Assembly (NCBI GenBank): GCA_965205265.1
Contig: CBDBGH010000003.1
Coordinates: 1,824,001-1,888,000, forward strand
Source of the DNA: Alphaproteobacteria bacterium
GTDB lineage: Bacteria; Pseudomonadota; Alphaproteobacteria; Bin95
Direction: 5' to 3'
Length of the DNA stretch: 64,000 bases
Under the pieces are notes generated by a model that did no database searches, was not told the DNA's origin, and saw nothing but the letters and a program-made list of their open reading frames with translations. The translations under genes were made by a program, and so were the position numbers. Position 1 is the first letter of the stretch, and each line of letters starts with the position of its first letter. This document shows, piece by piece, positions 6,806 to 25,009 of this stretch.

Positions 6806-8716
6806 CTACGGCGACGCCGCGCCGCCGGCATAGCCGACCTGCTTCAGCGCGGCCTCGATCTCGGCCATGATCTCCGGGTCGTCGATGGTCGCCGGCATGC
6901 GCCAGGTCTCCCGGTCGGCAACCTTCTGCATCGTGCCGCGCAGGATCTTGCCGGAGCGCGTCTTCGGCAGGCGCTCCACCACGACGGCAGTCTTGAACGC
7001 CGCGACCGGGCCGATCCGCCGGCGGACAAGGGCGACGACCTCCGACTCGATCTCGCCGAACGGCCGGTTGACGCCCGCCTTGAGCACGAGGAAGCCCACG
7101 GGAATCTGCCCCTTCAACTGGTCCGCGACGCCGATCACGGCGCATTCCGCGACATCGTGGTGGGCGGCCAGCACCTCTTCCATGGCACCGGTCGAAAGCC
7201 GGTGGCCGGCGACATTGATGATGTCGTCGGTCCGGGCCATGATGTAGGCGTAGCCGTCCTCGTCGATATAGCCGGCGTCAGCCGTCTTGTAGTAGCCGGG
7301 GAACTCGGTGAAGTAGGTGTCCAGATAGCGCTCATGCGCGTTCCAGAGCGTCGGGAAGGAACCCGGAGGCATGGGCGTCCTGACCACCAGCGCCCCGATG
7401 GTCCCGGCAGGCACTTCCTCGTTGCTGTCGTCCACCACGCGCAAGTCCCAGCCCGGCACGGGGCGCGTGGGCGAGCCGTGTTTCACGGGCAGAAGCTCGA
7501 TACCGACGCAATTGGCGCACATCGGCCAGCCGGTCTCGGTCTGCCACCAGTGGTCGATCACCGGGCGGTCCAGCACGTCCTCCGCCCATTTCAGCGTGTC
7601 CGGGTCGCTGCGTTCGCCTGCCAGGAACAGCGTGCGGAAATGCGAGAGGTCGCGTCCTTTGAGCAATTTCGCCTCGGGATCGTCCCGGCGGATGGCCCGA
7701 AAGGCCGTGGGCGCGGTGAACAGCGCGGCCACCTTGTGCTGCTCGATGATGCGCCAATAGACGCCGGCGTCCGGGGTGCCCACGGGCTTGCCCTCGAACA
7801 GGATGGCCGTGTTGCCGGCCAGCAGCGGCGCATAGACGATGTAGGAATGGCCGACGACCCAGCCGACATCGGAGGCGGCCCAGAAGACCTCTCCCGGTTC
7901 CACGCCATAGACGTTTTTCATGGTCCAGTGCAGCACCACCATGTGGCCGCCATTGTCCCGCACCACGCCCTTCGGCTGGCCCGTCGTGCCGGAGGTGTAG
8001 AGGATGTAGAGGGGGTCGAGCGCGCTGACCGGGACGCACTCCGCCGGCTCCGCGCCGGCAACCGCCTCCAGCCAGTCGACATCGCGCCCTTCGACCATCG
8101 AGGCTTCGCATTCCGGCCGCTGAAAGACGACGCAGAACTCGGGCTTGTGCGCCGCCAGATCGATGGCCCCGTCGAGCAGCGGCTTGTATTCCACCACCCG
8201 TCCCGGCTCGATGCCGCAGGAGGCGGCGATGACGGCCTTGCAGGCGCTGTCGTCGATGCGCACCGCCAGCTCGTTGGAAGCGAACCCGCCGAAGACCACG
8301 GAATGCACCGCGCCGAGCCGGGCGCAGGCGAGCATAGCGATTGCCGTTTCCGGGATCATCGGCATGTAGATGACGACCCGGTCGCCCTTGCCGATGCCGC
8401 GGCTCTTGAGAGCGCCGGCAAAGACCGCCACGGCGTCCCGCAATTCGCGGTAGGTGAAGGAGCGGACCGTGTCGGTCACCGGGCTGTCGTAGATCATCGC
8501 GGCCTGCTCGCCCCGCCCCGCCTCGACATGCCGGTCGAGGGCGTTGAAGCAGGTGTTGGTCACGCCGTCCACGAACCAGCGCCCGGCAGGCGTGGACTCC
8601 GTTTCCAGGATTTGCGTCGGCGCCTTGTACCAGTGCAGGTCGGCGGCGGCTTCCGCCCAGAACGCCTCGCGCTCGTCGAGCGAGCGGCGGAACGCGGTCT
8701 CATATGCTCCGGCCAT
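6806..8716 (-). CDS. prpE: Propionyl-CoA synthetase (acetate/propionate-CoA ligase)
   Basis: [35 protein letters not shown]; ATG at 8716 after GGAGG; the ORF-track extension to 9565 is spurious. Confidence 0.88.
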
Positions 8717-8869
8717 GACGGTCCCTCCCCTTCCGCTGGGGCCGGATGGATAGCACCTCGACGGCAGGGGAGGAAGCCGGCGCGGAACTGCCGGGATGAG
8801 GAAGACCCACCCCCAGCCCGCACCGCAAGCGGTATGACGGGCAAGAGCAAGGTGGCGCGGAAAATCTGT

Positions 8870-9367
8870 TTGTTCAAAAAAATCTGCTATTAATCCTAAA
8901 TAAAACTTGAAATTCTTCGCGCCAGCTGTAATATGGAGCGGAGAAGGGAAGCGGCATCCGCGGGCTGTATCCCTTCTTCGCGCCGGCGCCGGCGCAAAAA
9001 AGCCCCTGATTCGGCCAACGGGCGAAGTGCGCCCCGCGTCTGGCTCGCGCGCACGGGCGCAGGCGCAATCAGGCGCGCAAACCGCGCCGCCGCGAAACGC
9101 GCGGGGGCGGGCGCGCGGGCGCCGGTGCGCATTACGCGCGAAAAAGGGTCCCGCCGCGTTCGGCGCGGCGGCGCGGAGAAGGGAACGAAGACGGATGGAA
9201 AGGAGAGACCTATGCCGAAGACACAAAGCAGGAAGAACCGGCCGGCATACCCGGAGCTCCCGCCCGAAACGACGGCTCCATGCCCGAAAAGAACAGTCCC
9301 TATGCGCCGTGCGCATACAAATCATGACATCGCATGACATGCCACAACGGCCCAGGATGCAGGCGCG
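8870..9367 (+). repeat. Dispersed ~500-bp element, copy A (homologous to 22450-22917, opposite strand); candidate ncRNA/leader or non-autonomous element
   Basis: Colinear blocks shared with copy B: TTGTTCA.AAAAT, GGCATCCG, GGCGAAGTGCG, GCAATCAGGCGCGC, AACCGCGCCGCCGCGAAACGCGCG, CATTACGCGCGAA, AGGGTCCCGCCGC, GAAAGGA..GACCTATGCCGA, TATGCGCCGTGCGCAT, ATCATGACATC.CATGACA. Confidence 0.85.
8907..8934 (+). promoter_or_regulatory. Putative sigma70 promoter at head of element copy A
   Basis: TTGAAA-N16-TAATAT preceded by AT-rich tract. Confidence 0.45.
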
Positions 9368-9504
9368 TCGCCCCGGCCTGCCCTCGCGAAAGCGGGGGAC
9401 CCCGATCCGGGGCCTCATGCAACAGGGTGGGCCTTCGTCCGGAGCCCCCGGCCCGGCGCTGGCGCGCCGTCCCCCGCTTTCGCGAGGGCAGGCCGGGGTG
9501 ACGC
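9365..9504. repeat. REP/MITE-like palindromic element with 36-bp inverted arms
   Basis: 9365-9400 GCGTCGCCCCGGCCTGCCCTCGCGAAAGCGGGGGAC matches the reverse complement of 9469-9504 with one mismatch. Confidence 0.85.
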
Positions 9505-9674
9505 AAGAGGGGGGCGGACATCCTGGGGAGTTACGACGAAACATGACATTCCATGACACTCGCAAGGGCGCTCCCGCGACAGCGCGGGCGAAGCCGGCTC
9601 CGGGAATTGAATTCCGGGCGGCAACCGCCTAGAGCGTATCCTTGCCGACGCGAAACGAAGAAGGAGCCGGCCCG

Positions 9675-10910
9675 ATGGAACTCTGCGCTTTGGGCGAACA
9701 GCCGCCGCTCGGCGAGGTACCCGAGACGATGCACGCCTTCCTTGTGCGCCAGGACCGGTTCGGGGAACCGAAGGACGCCTGGCAGCATGAGGTCATTCCG
9801 GTTCCGGCCCTCAAGCCGGACGAGGTGCTCGTCTATGTCATGGCGACCGGCATCAACTACAACAATGTCTGGGCGGCGCTCGGCTACCCGATCGACGTGA
9901 TCGGCGAGCGGATGCGCAAGGGCGAACCGGAGGACTTCCATGCCGGCGGCAGCGACTGTTCCGGCATCGTCCAGGCTGTCGGCTCGGAAGTCACGAATGT
10001 CAGGCCCGGCGACGAAGTGGTGATCCATTCCGGCTGGTGGGAGCCGGACGACCCCTGGGTGCTGTCGGGCAAGGACCCCATGCTGGCGACCTCGACCCGG
10101 ATCTGGGGCTACCAGACCAATTACGGCTCCTATTGCCAGTTCGCGAAAGCTCAGGCGCACCAGTGCCAGCCGCGCCCGAAGCACCTGACCTGGGAGCAGT
10201 CGGGCTGCTACCTGCTCTGCGCCTCGACCGCCTACCGGATGCTGATGGGCTGGCCGCCGCACACGGTCGAGCCGGGCGATGCGGTGCTTGTCTGGGGCGC
10301 ATCGGGCGGCCTCGGCGCGATGGCGCTGCAGATCACCGCCGCGCTCGGCGGCCGGCCGGTCGCCGTCATCTCCGACGACGCCAAGCGCGACTGGTGCATG
10401 GAGATGGGCGCAGTCGGCGTCATCAACCGCACCGCCTTCGACCATTGGGGGCCGATGCCCGACACGACCGACGGCGCCGCCTACGGCGCCTGGGCCAAGG
10501 GAGCCCGGGCCTTCGGCGGCGCGATCTGGGAAGCGCTCGGCGAACGGGCGAGCCCGAAGATCGTGTTCGAGCATCCGGGCGAAGCCACCCTGCCGACCTC
10601 GGAGTTCGTCTGCGACACCGGCGGCATGATCGTCATTTGCGCCGGCACCACCGGCTACAATGTGACCCTCGACCTGCGCTACCATTGGATGCGGCAGAAG
10701 CGCTTCCAGGGCAGCCACCTTTCCAATGACGAGCAGGCGGCGGCAGTGAACAGGCTGGTCATCGACGGCAAGATCGACCCCTGCCTTTCGGAGGTGTTCG
10801 ATTTCGACGATCTCGGCCACGCCCACCAGCTGATGCACGAGAACCGCCACGCCGCCGGGCAGATGGCCGTGCTGGTCAACGCGACGGAACGCGGCCAAGG
10901 CGCTTCATGA
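9675..10910 (+). CDS. ccrA: Crotonyl-CoA carboxylase/reductase family enzyme
   Basis: GINYNNVWA, GSDCSG, IWGYQTNYGS, VFEHPG, CAGTTGYN, WMRQKRFQGSH; AAGGAG RBS. Confidence 0.82.
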   Translation: MELCALGEQPPLGEVPETMHAFLVRQDRFGEPKDAWQHEVIPVPALKPDEVLVYVMATGINYNNVWAALGYPIDVIGERMRKGEPEDFHAGGSDCSGIVQAVGSEVTNVRPGDEVVIHSGWWEPDDPWVLSGKDPMLATSTRIWGYQTNYGSYCQFAKAQAHQCQPRPKHLTWEQSGCYLLCASTAYRMLMGWPPHTVEPGDAVLVWGASGGLGAMALQITAALGGRPVAVISDDAKRDWCMEMGAVGVINRTAFDHWGPMPDTTDGAAYGAWAKGARAFGGAIWEALGERASPKIVFEHPGEATLPTSEFVCDTGGMIVICAGTTGYNVTLDLRYHWMRQKRFQGSHLSNDEQAAAVNRLVIDGKIDPCLSEVFDFDDLGHAHQLMHENRHAAGQMAVLVNATERGQGAS

Positions 10911-11735: not shown

Positions 11736-12476
11736 ATGGCCGATACAGACATCCTCCTCCAGGAAGACCGCGGCAGCACCCGCATTCTCACCCTCAACAG
11801 GCCGTGCCGCCTAAATGCGCTGAACGGCGCCCTGGTCGATGCAATCTGCGCCGCGGTCAGGCGCGCGCATGGCGATGAAACGGTGGCGTGCATCCTGCTG
11901 CAGGGCAATGAGCGCGCGTTTTCCGCCGGCGCCGACATGAAGGAAGCCGCGGACCATGCCGGCGAAGGCCTGCGCGCCGCCCGCAACCGGGCGGAGGCCG
12001 GGGCGACGATCTACGAGCTCGGCCGGCTGACCGACAAGCCGCTGATTGCGGCGGTGCGCGGCTACGCGCTCGGCGGCGGCTGCAATCTCGCCATCGCCTG
12101 CGACCTCGCGGTCGCGGGCGCAAGCGCCGTGTTCGGCTATCCGGAGGTCCGCCGCGGGCTGGCCGCGACCATGGTCACGCCCGGCCTCGCGCACCGCATC
12201 GGGCCGAAGGCGGCGTTCGAACTGCTGACCCTCGCAGAGGACGTGTCCGCCAACCGGGCGCTGGAACTCGGAATGGTCAACCGGGTCGTGCCGGACGACA
12301 AGGTTCTCGACGAAGCGCTCTCGATGGCGGAGGCCCTGGCGGCTTTCGACCGGGAAGCGGTGCGCGCGACCAAGCGGGTGCTCCAACGCTCCCTCGACCT
12401 CCCGGTCGCGGACGCGCTGTCCGCTGCCCGCGAAACCATGCTTTCCATGCGCCGGGGGATGGTGCCGCCGGAGTGA
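11736..12476 (+). CDS. Enoyl-CoA hydratase/isomerase family protein
   Basis: LNRP..LNAL, AFSAGAD, GYALGGG, FGYPE; stop lies inside the antisense tRNA. Confidence 0.85.
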   Translation: MADTDILLQEDRGSTRILTLNRPCRLNALNGALVDAICAAVRRAHGDETVACILLQGNERAFSAGADMKEAADHAGEGLRAARNRAEAGATIYELGRLTDKPLIAAVRGYALGGGCNLAIACDLAVAGASAVFGYPEVRRGLAATMVTPGLAHRIGPKAAFELLTLAEDVSANRALELGMVNRVVPDDKVLDEALSMAEALAAFDREAVRATKRVLQRSLDLPVADALSAARETMLSMRRGMVPPE

Positions 12477-12534
12477 TTTGAACACTCGACCCCACCCTTA
12501 CCAAGGGTGTGCTCTACCCCTGAGCTACGGCGGC
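12460..12534 (-). tRNA. tRNA-Thr(GGT)
   Basis: Reverse complement GCCGCCGTAGCTCAGGGGTAGAGCACACCCTTGGTAAGGGTGGGGTCGAGTGTTCAAATCACTCCGGCGGCACCA: cloverleaf, GGT anticodon, TTCAAAT T-loop, CCA end. Confidence 0.97.
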
Positions 12535-20807: not shown

Positions 20808-21553
20808 CGCAACTCGCCCATGCCGAAATGCGGGAAGACCTCGCCTGCGCGCTGCGCTGGGCCGTCAGGCTGGACCTGCATGAAGGCGTCGACAACCACT
20901 TCTCCGCAGCCGTGCCGAGCGAGGACGGCGAAATGCGGGGCGACCGCTTCCTCATCAACCCCTACGGGGTCCACTGGTCGGAAATGACCGCCTCCGCGCT
21001 CTGCCTCTGCAACGAGGAGGGCGAGGTGCTGGAAGGCGGCGAGAAGGTCGAGAACACGGCCTTCTACATCCACAGCCGCATCCATGTGAACGTCCCCTCG
21101 GCCAAGGTCGTGCTGCACACCCACCAGCCCTACTCCACGGCGATCACGCTGCTGGAGGGCGGGCGGCTGGAGATGTGCGAGCAGAACGCGCTGATGTTCG
21201 ACGACCGCATCGCCTATGACGACGACTATGACGGCCTTGCCCTCGGCAATGACGAAGGCGACCGCCTGGCCCGCGCCATGGGCAACCGGTCCATCGCCTT
21301 TCTGGCAAGCCACGGCGTGATCGTTTCGGGCGAGACCGTGGGCGAGGCATTCACCGACCTCTTCTACCTGGAGCGCGCCGCCCAGTTCCAGATGATCGCC
21401 AGGGCGACCGGCGGGAAGCTGCGGGCGATTTCGGACGAGGTGCGCCAGTCCGTTCGCCAGCAATTCGCCGAGGAGCGGCCGAAGCTGGCGGAACGCCATT
21501 TCGCGGCGCTGAAGCGCATTCTCGACCGCGAAGAACCCGAATACCGGCTGTAA
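20804..21553 (+). CDS. Class II aldolase/adducin family protein
   Basis: NHFS, FLINP.G.HW.E, IHSRIH, VLHTH, HGV. Confidence 0.88.
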   Translation: MTQLAHAEMREDLACALRWAVRLDLHEGVDNHFSAAVPSEDGEMRGDRFLINPYGVHWSEMTASALCLCNEEGEVLEGGEKVENTAFYIHSRIHVNVPSAKVVLHTHQPYSTAITLLEGGRLEMCEQNALMFDDRIAYDDDYDGLALGNDEGDRLARAMGNRSIAFLASHGVIVSGETVGEAFTDLFYLERAAQFQMIARATGGKLRAISDEVRQSVRQQFAEERPKLAERHFAALKRILDREEPEYRL

Positions 21554-21562
21554 GACGCGGCC

Positions 21563-22432
21563 ATGAGGATCGAACGGGTCGGCGACACCATCGACATGCT
21601 CGGCGAGGGGCCGCTCTGGGACGTGGCCGAGCAGGCGCTCTACTGGGTGGACAGCCGGGGATGCAGGATCCACCGGCTCGACTGGGCGAGCGGCGAACGC
21701 CGGGATTGGGACGTGCCGGCGATGATCGGCTCGATGGCGCTCCGCGAGTCCGGCGGCGCCGTCATCGCGCTCCAGACGGGCGTCCACACATTCGACTTCG
21801 AGACCGGCAAGGCGGTGCTGGTCGCCGACCCGGAGGCGGACGATCCCTCCACCCGCTTCAATGACGGCAAGGTGGACCGGCAGGGCCGTTTCCTCACCGG
21901 CACCATGGCGACCCGGATCGGCGAGGAGGCGCGCGGCTCGATCTACCGCTTGGACACCGACCTTTCCCTGCACCGGCTGAAGGGCGGCGTCATCGTCGCG
22001 AACGGCCCCTGCTTCAGCCCCGACGGCGAGACCTTCTACTTCGCCGACACGCGCCGAAATGCGATTTTCGCCTATGACTACGACACCGCGACCGGCGCTA
22101 TCGGGCCGGAGCGCGTGGCCGTGGACACCGCGCCCCATGACAGCGGCCCGGACGGCGGCACCGTGGACAGCGAAGGCTATCTCTGGACCGCCCTCGTCCA
22201 CGCAAGCCGGATTGCGCGCTTCGCGCCCGACGGCAGCCTCGACCGGCTGATCGACATGCCCTGCACCCGCCCCGCCAGCGTCATGTTCGGCGGACCGGAC
22301 CTGGATATCGTCTTCGTGCCGTCGATCCGCGATTCCGGCAATGTGCGCGGCGACAAGGAAATCGACGGCGCCCTGTTCGCCGTTCACGGCCTCGGCGTTA
22401 CCGGCCTGCCCGAGCCGCGCTTCGCCGGTTAG
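21563..22432 (+). CDS. SMP-30/gluconolactonase family protein
   Basis: LGEGPLW, RFNDGKVD, ANGPCFSPDG, PDG..VDSEG.LW. Confidence 0.9.
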   Translation: MRIERVGDTIDMLGEGPLWDVAEQALYWVDSRGCRIHRLDWASGERRDWDVPAMIGSMALRESGGAVIALQTGVHTFDFETGKAVLVADPEADDPSTRFNDGKVDRQGRFLTGTMATRIGEEARGSIYRLDTDLSLHRLKGGVIVANGPCFSPDGETFYFADTRRNAIFAYDYDTATGAIGPERVAVDTAPHDSGPDGGTVDSEGYLWTALVHASRIARFAPDGSLDRLIDMPCTRPASVMFGGPDLDIVFVPSIRDSGNVRGDKEIDGALFAVHGLGVTGLPEPRFAG

Positions 22433-22449
22433 GGCCCGCATTCCGGCCT

Positions 22450-22917
22450 CGCGCCTGCTGCCTGGGCAGGAACGCTCATCGAACGTGTCATGGGATGTCA
22501 TGATCCGCATGCGCACGGCGCATATGCTGTAACCTGTTCAGGCATGGGTTCCGGGTATTCCATCCGGTTCCGGCAGCTCCCGGTCCTCGGCATAGGTCCT
22601 TCCTTTCGATCCGTCCTCATTCCATTCGCCCGCCGCCGACTCGCTCCTGCGGCGGGACCCTGATTCGCGCGTAATGTGCGCGGGCGCCCCCGCGCCCGTG
22701 GGCGCGCGTTTCGCGGCGGCGCGGTTCGCGCGCCTGATTGCCCGCGCGCGAGGCGGGTGCAGGACGCACTTCGCCTGTCGGCTGAATCGGGGTCGTTCCG
22801 CATGCGGGCCGGCGCGGGCGGGAAGCGGCTCCGGATGCCACTTTCCTCAGACCCATCATAGCATACTTTTTGAAAATGCAAGCTTACAGAGAAATATTAC
22901 ATAAATTTTGTGAACAA
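22450..22917 (-). repeat. Dispersed ~500-bp element, copy B (homologous to 8870-9367)
   Basis: Reverse complement shares the same colinear blocks as copy A, including the promoter-like head, RBS+ATG (22593) and CATGACA tandem. Confidence 0.85.
22855..22881 (-). promoter_or_regulatory. Putative promoter at head of element copy B
   Basis: TTGCAT-N15-TATGAT with TGn extended -10 (TGCTATGAT); AT-rich upstream tract. Confidence 0.45.
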
Positions 22918-22994
22918 CTTGCTGTTCACACCAGCCGGCCGCCGGATTCGCATGTCTCCGTCCGGCGGCGCTGCAGTACCCGCCCCCTGTCCAT

Positions 22995-23031
22995 CACCCC
23001 GGACGGAGCAAAGCGGAAATCCGGGGTCCAG
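22995..23031. repeat. REP-like short palindrome
   Basis: ACCCCGGA..(loop)..TCCGGGGT, similar to the left end of the 9365-9504 palindrome. Confidence 0.5.
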
Positions 23032-23126
23032 TCCCGACTCTCGCGGCAGCCCCGGCAGCCCGGCCTCCTCTCCGCCGGCTGCGAGGGCATCGGAGCCATG
23101 GGCAGGCCCCGCCGGCATACCGGGCC

Positions 23127-23648
23127 TCAGGCGGTGAGCCTGCCTACGATCTCCTCGACGGCGGCATCGGCCAGCGCCTGGATTTCGGCGTCGGTGCGGT
23201 CCTGGATCGGATGGGGCACGAACACCATCGGCGGCTCGTAGCCGAGCGCAGCGGACTGCGCCTGCCACGCCTCCACGAACTCCGTGGTGGCGACGCCCAC
23301 GCCAACGACGCCCCTCGCTTCGAGGTCTGCGATATCATGCGTACAGCACGATGTGCAGGAGCCTCAGTCGGCCAGCCCTTCGACGACGAGGGCGGCCTCC
23401 GACGCGATCTGCTGCTTGACGGCAATCGGCGCCGTGCGCGCAAAGGTCGGCTTCATGTAGCGCTTCACTTCGATGCCCCGCTTGCCCAGGCGCTCATGCA
23501 GGCGGTCCAGAAAGACATCGCCGCGCGCCTTGGAAATGTCGAGCAGGGCCACGGTCCTGCCGTCCAGCGAAGCCGGACGGGCCAGCGGCTCGCGCCGCGC
23601 CGGCTCGACTTCGCCGGTCGGATCGACCAGCACCGGGGTGTTTCTCAC
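23127..23648 (-). CDS. UGSC-motif selenoprotein (173 aa, Sec at codon 95, TGA 23364-23366)
   Basis: Frame continues through TGA as ...VVEGLAD-U-GSCTSCCTHDIADLEARGVVGVGVATTEF...PHPIQDRT...GRLTA*; GTG start with GGAGG RBS; SECIS-like hairpin 11 nt after UGA. Confidence 0.9.
23322..23365 (-). promoter_or_regulatory. Bacterial SECIS element (putative)
   Basis: UGA-GGCUCCUGCAC-[AUCGUGC-UGUAC-GCAUGAU]: 7-bp upper stem (one G-U) starting 11 nt after UGA with G in loop; lower stem GAGG..CUGC / GCAG.CCUC. Confidence 0.75.
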
Positions 23649-25009
23649 GTTCCTACCTCCTTCGTTACAGGAATGCTGCCGACCGGGCCGGTGGCGGCCC
23701 AACCGGGCAGAATGGCGGAGAACATGCCTGCGCCGCCGCCGGCGCGGACGATCAGCAGGCCGCCCTCGCGCAGCTTGGGCATGGCCTGTCCCGGCTCGTC
23801 GAGCGCGGTGCGCAGCGCGGCCTCAAGGTCCTCGCGCGACCAGCCGCCCTCCCGGAACACGCGGTCGTGCTCCGGCGAGACGACAACCACCGCGTCGATA
23901 TTGCGCCGGTTGCGGTTCTCGAGGCCGCGGAACACATCGGCGAAGGTTTCCACAAGGGCCTCGGGCGTGCGCGAATCCTGGTCCACCACGCCCATCACGC
24001 CGTAGCCGGCAAAGAGCGTGACCGCCGAGGCCCCCGCGCCCGCGCCCCGGCTCTCGGAGAGCGGCGGCCAGGCGGAGCCTTCCTCGTCCTCGGGGAAGCA
24101 GAAAGTGTATTTGCCGGGATTGCCGAGCGCGGCCCGGTCCACGCCCTGCGGCTTGCCGCCGCCGACATTGCGCACAACGAGCTGGAGCGCGCGCCCGATG
24201 GTGGCGTTGGCGCGATTGCCCTGCCCGAGGACGTTGCCCTTCGCGTTCATGCCGATGGCGCGTCGCACCGGGCCGTTCACGATCGCGATGGGGCCGATGT
24301 AATAGGTCGTCGCCAGCACGCCGTGCATGCAGAAGGCCTCGTCCAGCGCCGCCTCGACCGCCGCCAGCACGACGGGCATGTATTCGGGCTTGCAGCCGGC
24401 CATCACGGCATTGACCGCGACCTTCTCCACCGTGCAGGGCTGGAGGTTGGGCGGCACGAGGCCCACCACCTCGCCCGGATCGCGCGTCGTGCCGTCCAGC
24501 ATGGCGAGCACGCGCGCCTCGGTCGGCGGCACGACGGGCAGGCCATCCGACCAGCCGCGGTCGTAAGCCGCCTCGATCTCGTCTTCCAGCGGCGCCAGCG
24601 GCACCCGGCGGGAGCTGAGCTGCGCAGAACCGAAGCGCGCCGCCAACGTCTCCGGCATGCCCGGCTCGACATTCTTCGCCCCGCAACCCGGGCGGAAAGG
24701 CGGCAGGTCCGCGCCGAGACCGCCGAGGCCGGTCAGACGCTCCCACTCCGCCCGGTCCCAGCCCCAGGTCCGTTCGACCTCCTCGCCGTCTTCGCGCCGG
24801 ATCAGGGTCGGCACGATCTCGACGCCGAGGCGGAAGGATCGCTCAAGCCCCTCGTCGAGTTCGCCGGACACGCTTTCCGGGAAGGCGGGATCGTCCTGCG
24901 TCCAGACATCCAGCGCGATCCCGGAGGCCGCAAGCTGGGCATAGACCGGCTCCAGCAGGGTGCAGGTCGGGCAGTCGCGCTTCACGACCAGGGTGAGCTG
25001 TTTCGTCAT
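23645..25009 (-). CDS. Thioredoxin-fold (CPTC) domain fused to conserved unknown domain; partner of UGSC selenoprotein
   Basis: VKRDCPTC, EIVPTL cis-Pro motif, RPGCGA, GWSDGLPVVPPT, AVMAGCKPEY, NRANATIGRA; GTGA overlap with selenoprotein start. Confidence 0.8.
   Translation of the reverse strand: MTKQLTLVVKRDCPTCTLLEPVYAQLAASGIALDVWTQDDPAFPESVSGELDEGLERSFRLGVEIVPTLIRREDGEEVERTWGWDRAEWERLTGLGGLGADLPPFRPGCGAKNVEPGMPETLAARFGSAQLSSRRVPLAPLEDEIEAAYDRGWSDGLPVVPPTEARVLAMLDGTTRDPGEVVGLVPPNLQPCTVEKVAVNAVMAGCKPEYMPVVLAAVEAALDEAFCMHGVLATTYYIGPIAIVNGPVRRAIGMNAKGNVLGQGNRANATIGRALQLVVRNVGGGKPQGVDRAALGNPGKYTFCFPEDEEGSAWPPLSESRGAGAGASAVTLFAGYGVMGVVDQDSRTPEALVETFADVFRGLENRNRRNIDAVVVVSPEHDRVFREGGWSREDLEAALRTALDEPGQAMPKLREGGLLIVRAGGGAGMFSAILPGWAATGPVGSIPVTKEVGT

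Follow-up and report, generated by a model that had tools for sequence, protein, structure and literature searches.

Two short intergenic elements in a 64,000-nucleotide stretch of an Alphaproteobacteria bacterium genome (GenBank assembly GCA_965205265.1, contig CBDBGH010000003.1, positions 1,824,001 to 1,888,000; hereafter the window) are cargo-less members of a modular repeat family, and the complete form of this family is a cassette carrying an orphan small-terminase-like gene. The first element, copy A, lies at 8870-9367 on the forward strand, and the second, copy B, at 22917-22450 on the reverse strand. The reading that we favor, with a probability of about 0.55, is that both are non-coding derivatives of a selfish cassette of this type and that the CATGACA heptamers in their 3' parts are binding sites of the protein that the complete cassette encodes. 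The host genus is uncultured, alphaproteobacterial and apparently sponge associated. A full-text literature search found no description of such a repeat family.

The original prediction, made from the letters of the window, had described two diverged copies of about 500 bp. Alignment confirmed this and recovered every feature that had been listed: the two copies share colinear blocks split by indels, with a mean column identity of 79% over 674 columns, flanks included. The order of parts is common to both, namely, an AT-rich tract led by TTGTTC, a promoter-like site, about 270 nt of GC-rich sequence, GGAAAGGA..ATG, a palindrome and two heptamers. When copy A was used as the query, a BLAST-type search gave 55 matches in the genome; nhmmer with the same query gave 92 matches, and a profile built from those gave 111. 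The likeness of copies A and B is far above chance. The 5' module is present in 75 matches, and the 3' module is reached in 75. All are on the 5.46-Mb contig, at about 73 distinct loci, and two pairs fall in segments present twice in the assembly. The genome-wide multicopy family that had been predicted from two copies was thus found, at 75 loci. With the same query, the family was detected in 14 of 16 other genomes of the genus (G003 and G013 had no match, and G001 had only 2 weak ones), in none of 8 genomes of two sister genera, and in none of 16 genomes of other families. All copies are intergenic between host genes; the ORFs called inside them are their own cargo, apart from one 4-kb copy with inserted genes.

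Three classes of copies were found. Most members are short copies of about 450 bp without cargo, like copies A and B (class a). In seven copies (class b), the shared ATG opens a gene of 300 to 311 codons. These class b units, which extend for about 1.25 kb between TTGTTC and the final heptamer, are 93 to 98% identical, and this gene is the only one in them. The full cassette is made up of the AT-rich motif region, the consensus-like sigma-70 promoter with its extended -10, the leader of about 270 nt, a ribosome-binding site (RBS) with the ATG, the gene for a 303-amino-acid (aa) protein, and two to four heptamers. The heptamers are one helical turn apart and overlap the last codons and the stop codon of the gene. 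In about ten copies (class c), an ORF of 197 aa begins at the end of the leader and is followed by the usual 3' module. Because seven copies run on from the shared ATG into the 303-aa gene, the RBS and ATG of the window copies correspond to the start of a cargo gene. A search for full-length copies carrying an ORF had been proposed; besides the seven units, it yielded four internal-deletion intermediates that retain the first ~62 nt of the gene, two of which also retain its last ~270 nt. Copy B is 84.5% identical to the full-length unit F5 over 304 nt, a match that ends at the leader; copy A likewise matches a full-length unit along the leader, and its heptamers match as well.

The 303-aa protein is related to small terminases. 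Its residues 11 to 87 match Pfam Terminase_2 (PF03592; E 3.7e-13, 50.7 bits, cut-off 26.1), and it matches PHROG 51 (phrog_51, "terminase small subunit") at E 1e-13. A 53-sequence profile searched against the PDB matched 2cmp and 4zc3, the DNA-binding domain of the SF6 small terminase, at E 1.6e-4 and 3zqp at 9e-4. The AlphaFold model is all helical, with a mean pLDDT of 61.6. The helix-turn-helix (HTH) at residues 11 to 64 has values of 84 to 89, and the central helices at residues 69 to 106 have values of 64 to 74; disorder is predicted for residues 114 to 145 and most of residues 198 to 246. In a Foldseek search, the HTH was placed on 4zc3 with a TM score of 0.90, normalized to the target, and an rmsd of 1.2 Å, and nothing else was found at E <= 0.001. 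As modeled, the protein is an SF6/SPP1 G1P-type small-terminase HTH at the N terminus followed by a helical, acidic remainder of unassigned fold. The genome contains seven Terminase_2 matches, and all of them are the class b units. By the codon differences among these seven paralogues (286 synonymous versus 114 non-synonymous, summed over 21 non-independent pairs), the gene is under purifying selection. At least 365 clusters of full-length homologues were found. The 120 listed are 62 to 97% identical and come nearly all from metagenome assemblies, and the name found among them is "terminase small subunit."

The gene and the heptamers occur together in other genomes as well. The gene is also multicopy in other metagenome-assembled genomes (MAGs), whose titles read Alphaproteobacteria or Rhodospirillaceae bacterium and among which are several sponge bins. 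At 36 of 45 MAG loci with a complete gene end, at least two phased heptamers are found at the stop codon, usually from 12 nt before it, and many of these MAGs have the genus-type 5' module ahead of the gene. In more distant bins, an AT-rich promoter immediately precedes the gene, the GC-rich leader is missing, and CCTGACA replaces CATGACA. Judged from sequence, the pairing of gene and heptamers is conserved in other MAG species. In the genome studied here, 117 tandem CATGAC clusters were counted, and 136 of 151 spacings are exactly 10 nt. A family 3' module lies within 150 nt of 81 clusters; the other 36 include pieces of insertion-split arrays, some arrays at the ends of small-terminase-like genes, and 20 clusters in coding sequence. 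Three observations make the heptamers the probable binding sites of the 303-aa protein: they are phased by one helical turn, their pairing with the gene is conserved, and their sequence is shifted in distant relatives.

We propose the following mechanism. The small-terminase-like protein, probably as an oligomer, would bind phased heptamers in cis as well as in trans, and perhaps the 5' module too, much as a small terminase recognizes a pac region covering its own promoter and the start of its gene. The short copies would be derivatives keeping only the cis-acting parts, that is, the promoter, the leader and the heptamer array. They are likely still transcribed from their own promoters, and their micro-ORFs would be relics rather than genes. 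As selfish DNA, the family would both persist and spread, using a route that the unit itself does not encode, and it may need a helper.

The family is built of modules. Its members combine a sigma-70 promoter, the -10 of which is extended, with a leader of about 270 nt, a middle part that varies, and a 3' module that has CATGACA heptamers at its end. The 74 aligned 5' ends are alike exactly from TTGTTC onward, about 37 to 40 nt 5' of the -35, and the flanks upstream are unrelated. TTGTTC, AATATTTCT, the -35 and TGnTATGAT are retained, but the intervening spacers are variable and differ even where two units are otherwise 98% identical. In copy A, the first part of the 5' module (8870..8940, +) was delimited by sequence, a promoter scan and the 74 aligned 5' ends. 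It begins with the boundary motif TTGTTC, which opens the AT-rich tract (8870-8875), and contains the promoter-like TTGAAA-16-TAATAT at 8907-8934, composed of a -35 TTGAAA (8907-8912) and an extended -10 TGtTAATAT with the TG one base 5' of the -10 (8927-8934). The promoter scan found this as the sole such site in 8700-9700, where shuffles predict 0.1. The 5' module of copy B (22855..22917, -) starts with TTGTTC at 22917-22912, within an inverted repeat, GTGAACA-N6-TGTTCAC. Related GAACA..TGTTC pairs were seen at some other family 5' ends, and such pairs could be an operator. After the AT-rich tract of copy B come a -35-like TTGCAT (22881-22876) and an extended -10, TGcTATGAT (22863-22855). 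This TTGCAT-15-TATGAT was not called by the promoter scanner because its spacer is 15 nt.

The leader has a 5' hairpin and an almost invariant core around GCAATCAGGCGCGC..CGCGAAACGCG in the family alignments. In copy A, it occupies 8941..9211 (+), according to family alignments and the RNAalifold helices and pair counts, with a degenerate 5' hairpin at 8947-8973 and the near-invariant core GCAATCAGGCGCGC..CGCGAAACGCGCG at 9065-9103. The leader of copy B (22594..22854, -) falls, by alignment, in the subfamily found at the head of the small-terminase-like gene copies as well. An RBS-like GGAAAGGAG is found in copy A at 9197-9205, and the ATG is at 9212-9214, not at about 9213; the ATG of copy B is at 22593-22591. 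In 55 of 63 unique copies, an ATGCC stands at a fixed distance of 43 nt before the first heptamer, and this holds for the 3' modules of both copy A (9280..9339, +; ATGCC at 9280) and copy B (22486..22545, -; ATGCC at 22545). The sequence ATGCGC-CGT-GCGCAT had been described as a hairpin. It is a perfect palindrome only in copy A (9302-9316, +) and copy B (22523-22509, -), and just its outer ATG...CAT and the fixed spacing are kept across the family. Heptamers 1 and 2 of copy A lie at 9323-9329 and 9333-9339 (+), with a 10-nt period, and those of copy B lie at 22502-22496 and 22492-22486 (-). The array of copy A is split by a secondary insertion of about 200 bp at 9340..9541 (no strand assigned), which is palindromic, resembles a miniature inverted-repeat transposable element (MITE) and does not belong to the family unit. 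Heptamers 3 and 4 are displaced by it to 9542-9548 and 9552-9558 (+), and the heptamer scan recorded them as the orphan cluster 1833542. In the orthologue of copy A in the congener G005, the insertion is absent and four heptamers are contiguous. Two terminator-like hairpins were also obtained from a scan, one at 9151-9171 (-), antisense within the leader of copy A, and the other, the inverted repeat GTGAACA-N6-TGTTCAC, at 22909-22930 (-), at the 5' edge of copy B.

The sites that the family occupies differ between species of the genus. Copy A has a counterpart at the orthologous locus of G005 and of G007 and none in G009, and G014 lacks unit F1, having 89 bp instead of 1,480 bp. Of the suggested non-autonomous mobile element, the dispersal and the polymorphism between species were thus upheld, but no mobilizing enzyme, inverted ends or target duplication accompanied them. 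The flanks of the seven young (full-length) copies share no target duplication, and a possible 9-bp repeat at copy A is weak.

Several results weigh against a selfish cassette with protein-bound heptamers. The 1.25-kb unit contains a single gene and no mobilizing enzyme or recombinase, and terminal inverted repeats were found neither at the aligned ends of the 7 full-length copies nor at those of 74 others; the original prediction had likewise seen no transposase and no terminal inverted repeats. Inverted heptamers at the 5' end were considered as hidden inverted repeats and rejected, since neither the heptamer nor its complement is enriched there. Neither of the two empty sites (G009 and G014) offers a legible junction or duplication, because the remaining spacer is replaced or unalignable. 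No enzyme-like domain was seen in the 303-aa model, about a third of which is below pLDDT 50. The isolated DNA-binding domain of SF6 is reported to have little preference for the pac repeats (PMC4737164). The short copies are 70 to 80% alike among themselves; many of them may be old and inert, and the conservation among copies could reflect a few master copies rather than selection on each copy. In favor of the reading, with gap columns set aside, the leader of copy A is about 94% identical to its G005 and G007 orthologues, versus 84 to 86% for the adjacent non-element spacer, 72 to 86% for the promoter tract and 76 to 83% for the 3' module; this apparent conservation of the leader concerns one locus and two species. 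Also in favor, sponge metatranscriptome contigs (90 to 99% identity) stack on 9033-9114 at a summed depth of 160 to 330, versus 10 to 40 for the flanking genes, which gives no more than a hint that family members are transcribed. These depths are sums over contigs from many copies and carry no strand or end information, and no contig covers 8787-8990, the 5' part of copy A. The contigs came from four metatranscriptome runs, with X2 and X3 covering the flanking gene only.

Other explanations start from the transcript rather than from the protein. If the family were a multicopy regulatory or structural RNA, each copy would give, from a strong promoter of its own, a GC-rich transcript of about 270 to 400 nt, and this RNA rather than a protein or a DNA site would be what selection keeps. 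We consider this rather improbable. The conserved promoter, the leader of copy A standing above its neighboring spacer, the high summed depth over the leader core and the random orientation of copies to their neighbors, as for a free-standing unit, all fit such an RNA. RNAalifold on 100 unique leaders predicted a 10-bp 5' hairpin and several GC helices. The 5' hairpin is paired in 87% of cells, versus 44 to 54% in shifted controls, but its 4 pairs with double-sided changes compare with 2 to 4 in those controls, so that in covariation the controls equal the real helices. The other leader helices are 78 to 98% paired with 0 to 2 double changes, and in a MAFFT alignment only 1 of 15 predicted pairs had a double-sided change. 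The core is conserved as sequence and not as pairs. Thus, of the structured RNA that had been proposed, the high pairing potential and the conserved leader of copy A stand, and the covariation is weak relative to shifted controls. The claim that the elements belong to no known non-coding RNA family agreed with Rfam, where no family matched them at the gathering threshold and a search of 8800-9650 at E up to 10 gave chance-level matches only, the best being a plant microRNA model with 22.7 bits against a cut-off of 200. Moreover, distant relatives have the gene and the heptamers without the leader, and no terminator was found after the unit in a scan of both window copies. Two variants of the leader were noted: the G007 orthologue of copy A (L137) has a 27-nt insertion that lengthens the terminal GC helix, and one metatranscriptome contig has a similar additional block at 9156/9173. 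A mobile promoter or leader that drives or regulates a downstream host gene is very unlikely. The promoter is strong and points outward, and the gene next to copy A (9675-10910) is co-oriented, 312 bp past the element match; however, the gene that copy B faces is convergent, its 3' end pointing to the element, and the downstream neighbor is co-oriented for 42 of 75 copies and convergent for 33, with the 42 including the element's own small-terminase-like genes. The upstream neighbor is co-oriented in 45 cases and divergent in 29. With neighbor orientation random, a role as a host-gene promoter was rejected. We give the least credence to a leader with a micropeptide, whose product would be either the short ORF after the RBS or a 15-codon ORF in the 3' module. 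In copy A, the former has 41 codons and a stop (9212..9337, +), the stop lying inside the second heptamer; in copy B, it has 31 codons and a stop (22498..22593, -) and runs through the 3' module in a frame different from that of copy A. An ATG or GTG at the shared start is kept in 46 of 57 copies, peptides of 31 and 41 residues recur, the ORF of copy A is open in three species, and in 55 of 63 copies the 15-codon frame is of constant length, from ATGCC to a TGA within heptamer 1. Against these points, the non-synonymous and synonymous changes of the copy A ORF between orthologues number 15:1, 12:2 and 7:1 (the 15:1 and 12:2 being against two sister species), ORF lengths across the family range from 4 to 369 codons, the recurrent peptides use different frames of the 3' module, and no three-base period was found in the column entropy of that module for the 15-codon frame. 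The micropeptide suggested in the original prediction was rejected on account of these codon changes and inconsistent frames. Unlike the 303-aa gene, the micro-ORF of copy A is not under purifying selection, and it is probably not a functional peptide.

The domain of the protein also invites explanations based on packaging. The copies might be distributed packaging signals, belonging either to a phage satellite reduced to terS and pac or to a host gene-exchange device, and the large terminase of a helper phage would then package segments of the chromosome from them. The seven genes would supply the recognition protein, and about 70 modules, one per 73 kb on average, would be the pac-like entry sites. 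This is possible, but we hold it to be unlikely. In its favor, the small-terminase DNA-binding domain is the only recognizable domain of the protein, the cargo-less copies retain exactly the repeats and the promoter/gene-start module, and the copies are spread along the chromosome with gaps of 73 kb (mean) and 50 kb (median). The phased repeats at the gene and the module over the promoter and gene start also parallel the layout of the SPP1 pac region, which has direct repeats and spans the small-terminase promoters and the start of the gene (PMC4737164). However, Terminase_6N, TerL_ATPase and HK97 capsid had no match in the genome, with controls positive for each (other terminase and portal families were not searched), and the genome is 99% complete by marker genes, with 7% contamination. 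With tblastn, the protein matched none of 50,697 phage records and none of 72,556 plasmids, and IMG/VR gave four distant matches only, 28 to 36% identical over residues 9 to 92. That the three phage families searched went unmatched and that the protein lacks relatives in phages both argue against a resident helper. The orientation of copies is unbiased (34 of 75), which is uninformative here, as the GC skew shows no clear origin and the contig has duplicated segments. Packaging also leaves unexplained how copies arrive at new loci. Equally doubtful in our estimate is a domesticated small terminase, i.e., a ring-forming protein made by a few copies, for which about 70 modules, every 50 to 70 kb, would be loading sites in a new kind of genome-wide system. 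This would lead either to headful packaging of the entire chromosome by a helper phage, as a satellite or gene-transfer device reduced to terS and pac, or to copying of the cassette to new sites independently of a terminase.

Returning to the selfish cassette, candidates for the mobilizing activity were sought in the genome. IS91-type rolling-circle elements, which insert next to GTTC, provided a lead for the GTTC at the 5' edge of the family. Mobilization by a rolling-circle (HUH) enzyme was rejected: the genome has no intact Y2 transposase, and the only match was a 40-position fragment with a stop codon. The Y1 (RAYT-type) transposase PF01797 had no match in the genome, and the control was positive in 6 of 14 genomes. 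A neighboring 551-aa DDE transposase was also rejected, as it belongs to a separate insertion sequence (IS) that is inserted into copies. This IS is 1,921 bp long, encodes a DDE_Tnp_1 transposase of 551 aa and has inverted ends TCCTGACTTCGACGG. Copies that are 99.9% identical lie beside two full-length units, at L038:6304-7959 (G000:C3:2360303-2361958) and near C3:1923744; one copy of the IS interrupts the leader of a truncated family member, and the end of another abuts a heptamer array at C3:3856207.

Other small elements were found in or next to family copies. In G007, a different insertion of about 1.46 kb occupies the site of the 9340-9541 insert of copy A, and partial relatives of this insert adjoin other family copies, e.g., near C3:2926897, 4504287 and 3032099. 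A second small element, with ends GGGGCTTATATGGATAGGTTGAC..., is repeatedly inserted after CATGA within heptamer arrays, at family 3' ends (G000:C3:980264-980499, 1205635, 1589170, 840591 and 2146006). It seems, therefore, that other mobile DNA inserts preferentially into the arrays. Family copies may also be involved in rearrangements. In G005 and G010, over 0.5 Mb separates the two flanks of copy B (window 21400-24000), and the break falls within or beside a family copy, which suggests that the family repeats mediate rearrangements. Candidate orthologues of copy B in G007 (81%) and G005 (74%) have rearranged flanks and were not used as orthologues.

The class c cargo was characterized separately. 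The 197-aa protein, encoded at L031:2291-2884 (G000:C3:3308975-3309568) and in about nine other copies, is acidic and has two YDGSED..Y.G...TP.F..W...QERR repeats. Its family comprises at least 154 clusters, from MAGs of the same kind. No usable family assignment came from Pfam, NCBIfam or the ESM Atlas, a weak match was obtained to phrog_31793 (function unknown; E 2.9e-5), and no homology to the 303-aa protein was found (hhalign probability 0.2).

A few observations concern the window and the assembly as a whole. A tRNA gene at 12463-12534 (-) is the single Rfam match at the gathering level in the window. On the large contig, long segments are present twice at 99.9 to 100% identity (C3:1-60000 versus 4632568-4659093 and 5407582-5431059), which may be assembly redundancy. 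A 781-kb stretch at C3:4.64-5.41 Mb contains zero family copies, versus about 10 expected, and has a G+C content of 67.1%, versus 68.4%; it may be a different replicon, a different strain or a bin contaminant.

Small terminases are known as parts of phage packaging machines. Here, a small-terminase-type gene stands alone, in seven copies, with its own promoter, leader and phased repeats, and the non-coding derivatives around it are about 10 times as numerous. Should the protein bind the heptamers, the two would form a compact and experimentally tractable protein-site pair, with a bearing on how chromosomal DNA enters phage particles and on how repeats spread without a recombinase. The repeats matter in practice as well: about 75 of them per genome break assemblies and mark points of rearrangement in these MAGs, and they are insertion hot spots for other small elements.

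The family can be compared with several known systems. BOX, REP/BIME, Correia and RIME elements are mosaics of conserved blocks, often transcribed, mostly shorter than 200 bp and without a coding master form. The present family is like them in being modular, with variable middles, intergenic only, likely transcribed and genus restricted. No such element is known to be tied to a small-terminase-type gene, and unlike the case of REP/BIME, no REP-associated Y1 transposase was found in this genome. With MITEs, the family shares short, non-coding, intergenic multicopy derivatives alongside gene-bearing copies and deletion intermediates, as well as a presence that varies between species. Unlike MITEs, it has no terminal inverted repeats, no legible target duplication and no transposase in the long form; its promoter is conserved, and its copies are 70 to 80% alike rather than near identical. 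Phage-inducible chromosomal islands (PICIs), which measure several kb or more, are equipped with an integrase, regulators and replication genes and occupy one or a few att sites. The cassette resembles PICI-like satellites in having a chromosomal small-terminase-type gene without a large terminase, so that a helper would be needed, and differs from them in being a single-gene unit of 1.25 kb, without an integrase, at about 75 unrelated intergenic sites. Compared with the terS-pac region of SPP1/SF6, the cassette has no adjacent large terminase, portal or capsid gene, its family consists of 7 coding and about 66 non-coding copies, and the 3' end of the gene is where its repeats lie. The 303-aa protein has twice the length, its acidic C-terminal part is unmatched, and no BLAST-level relative of the protein was found in phage records. 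What the two systems have in common is a homologous N-terminal HTH DNA-binding domain and, as described for SPP1/SF6, direct repeats beside or inside the gene together with a conserved region over the promoter, RBS and start codon (PMC4737164).

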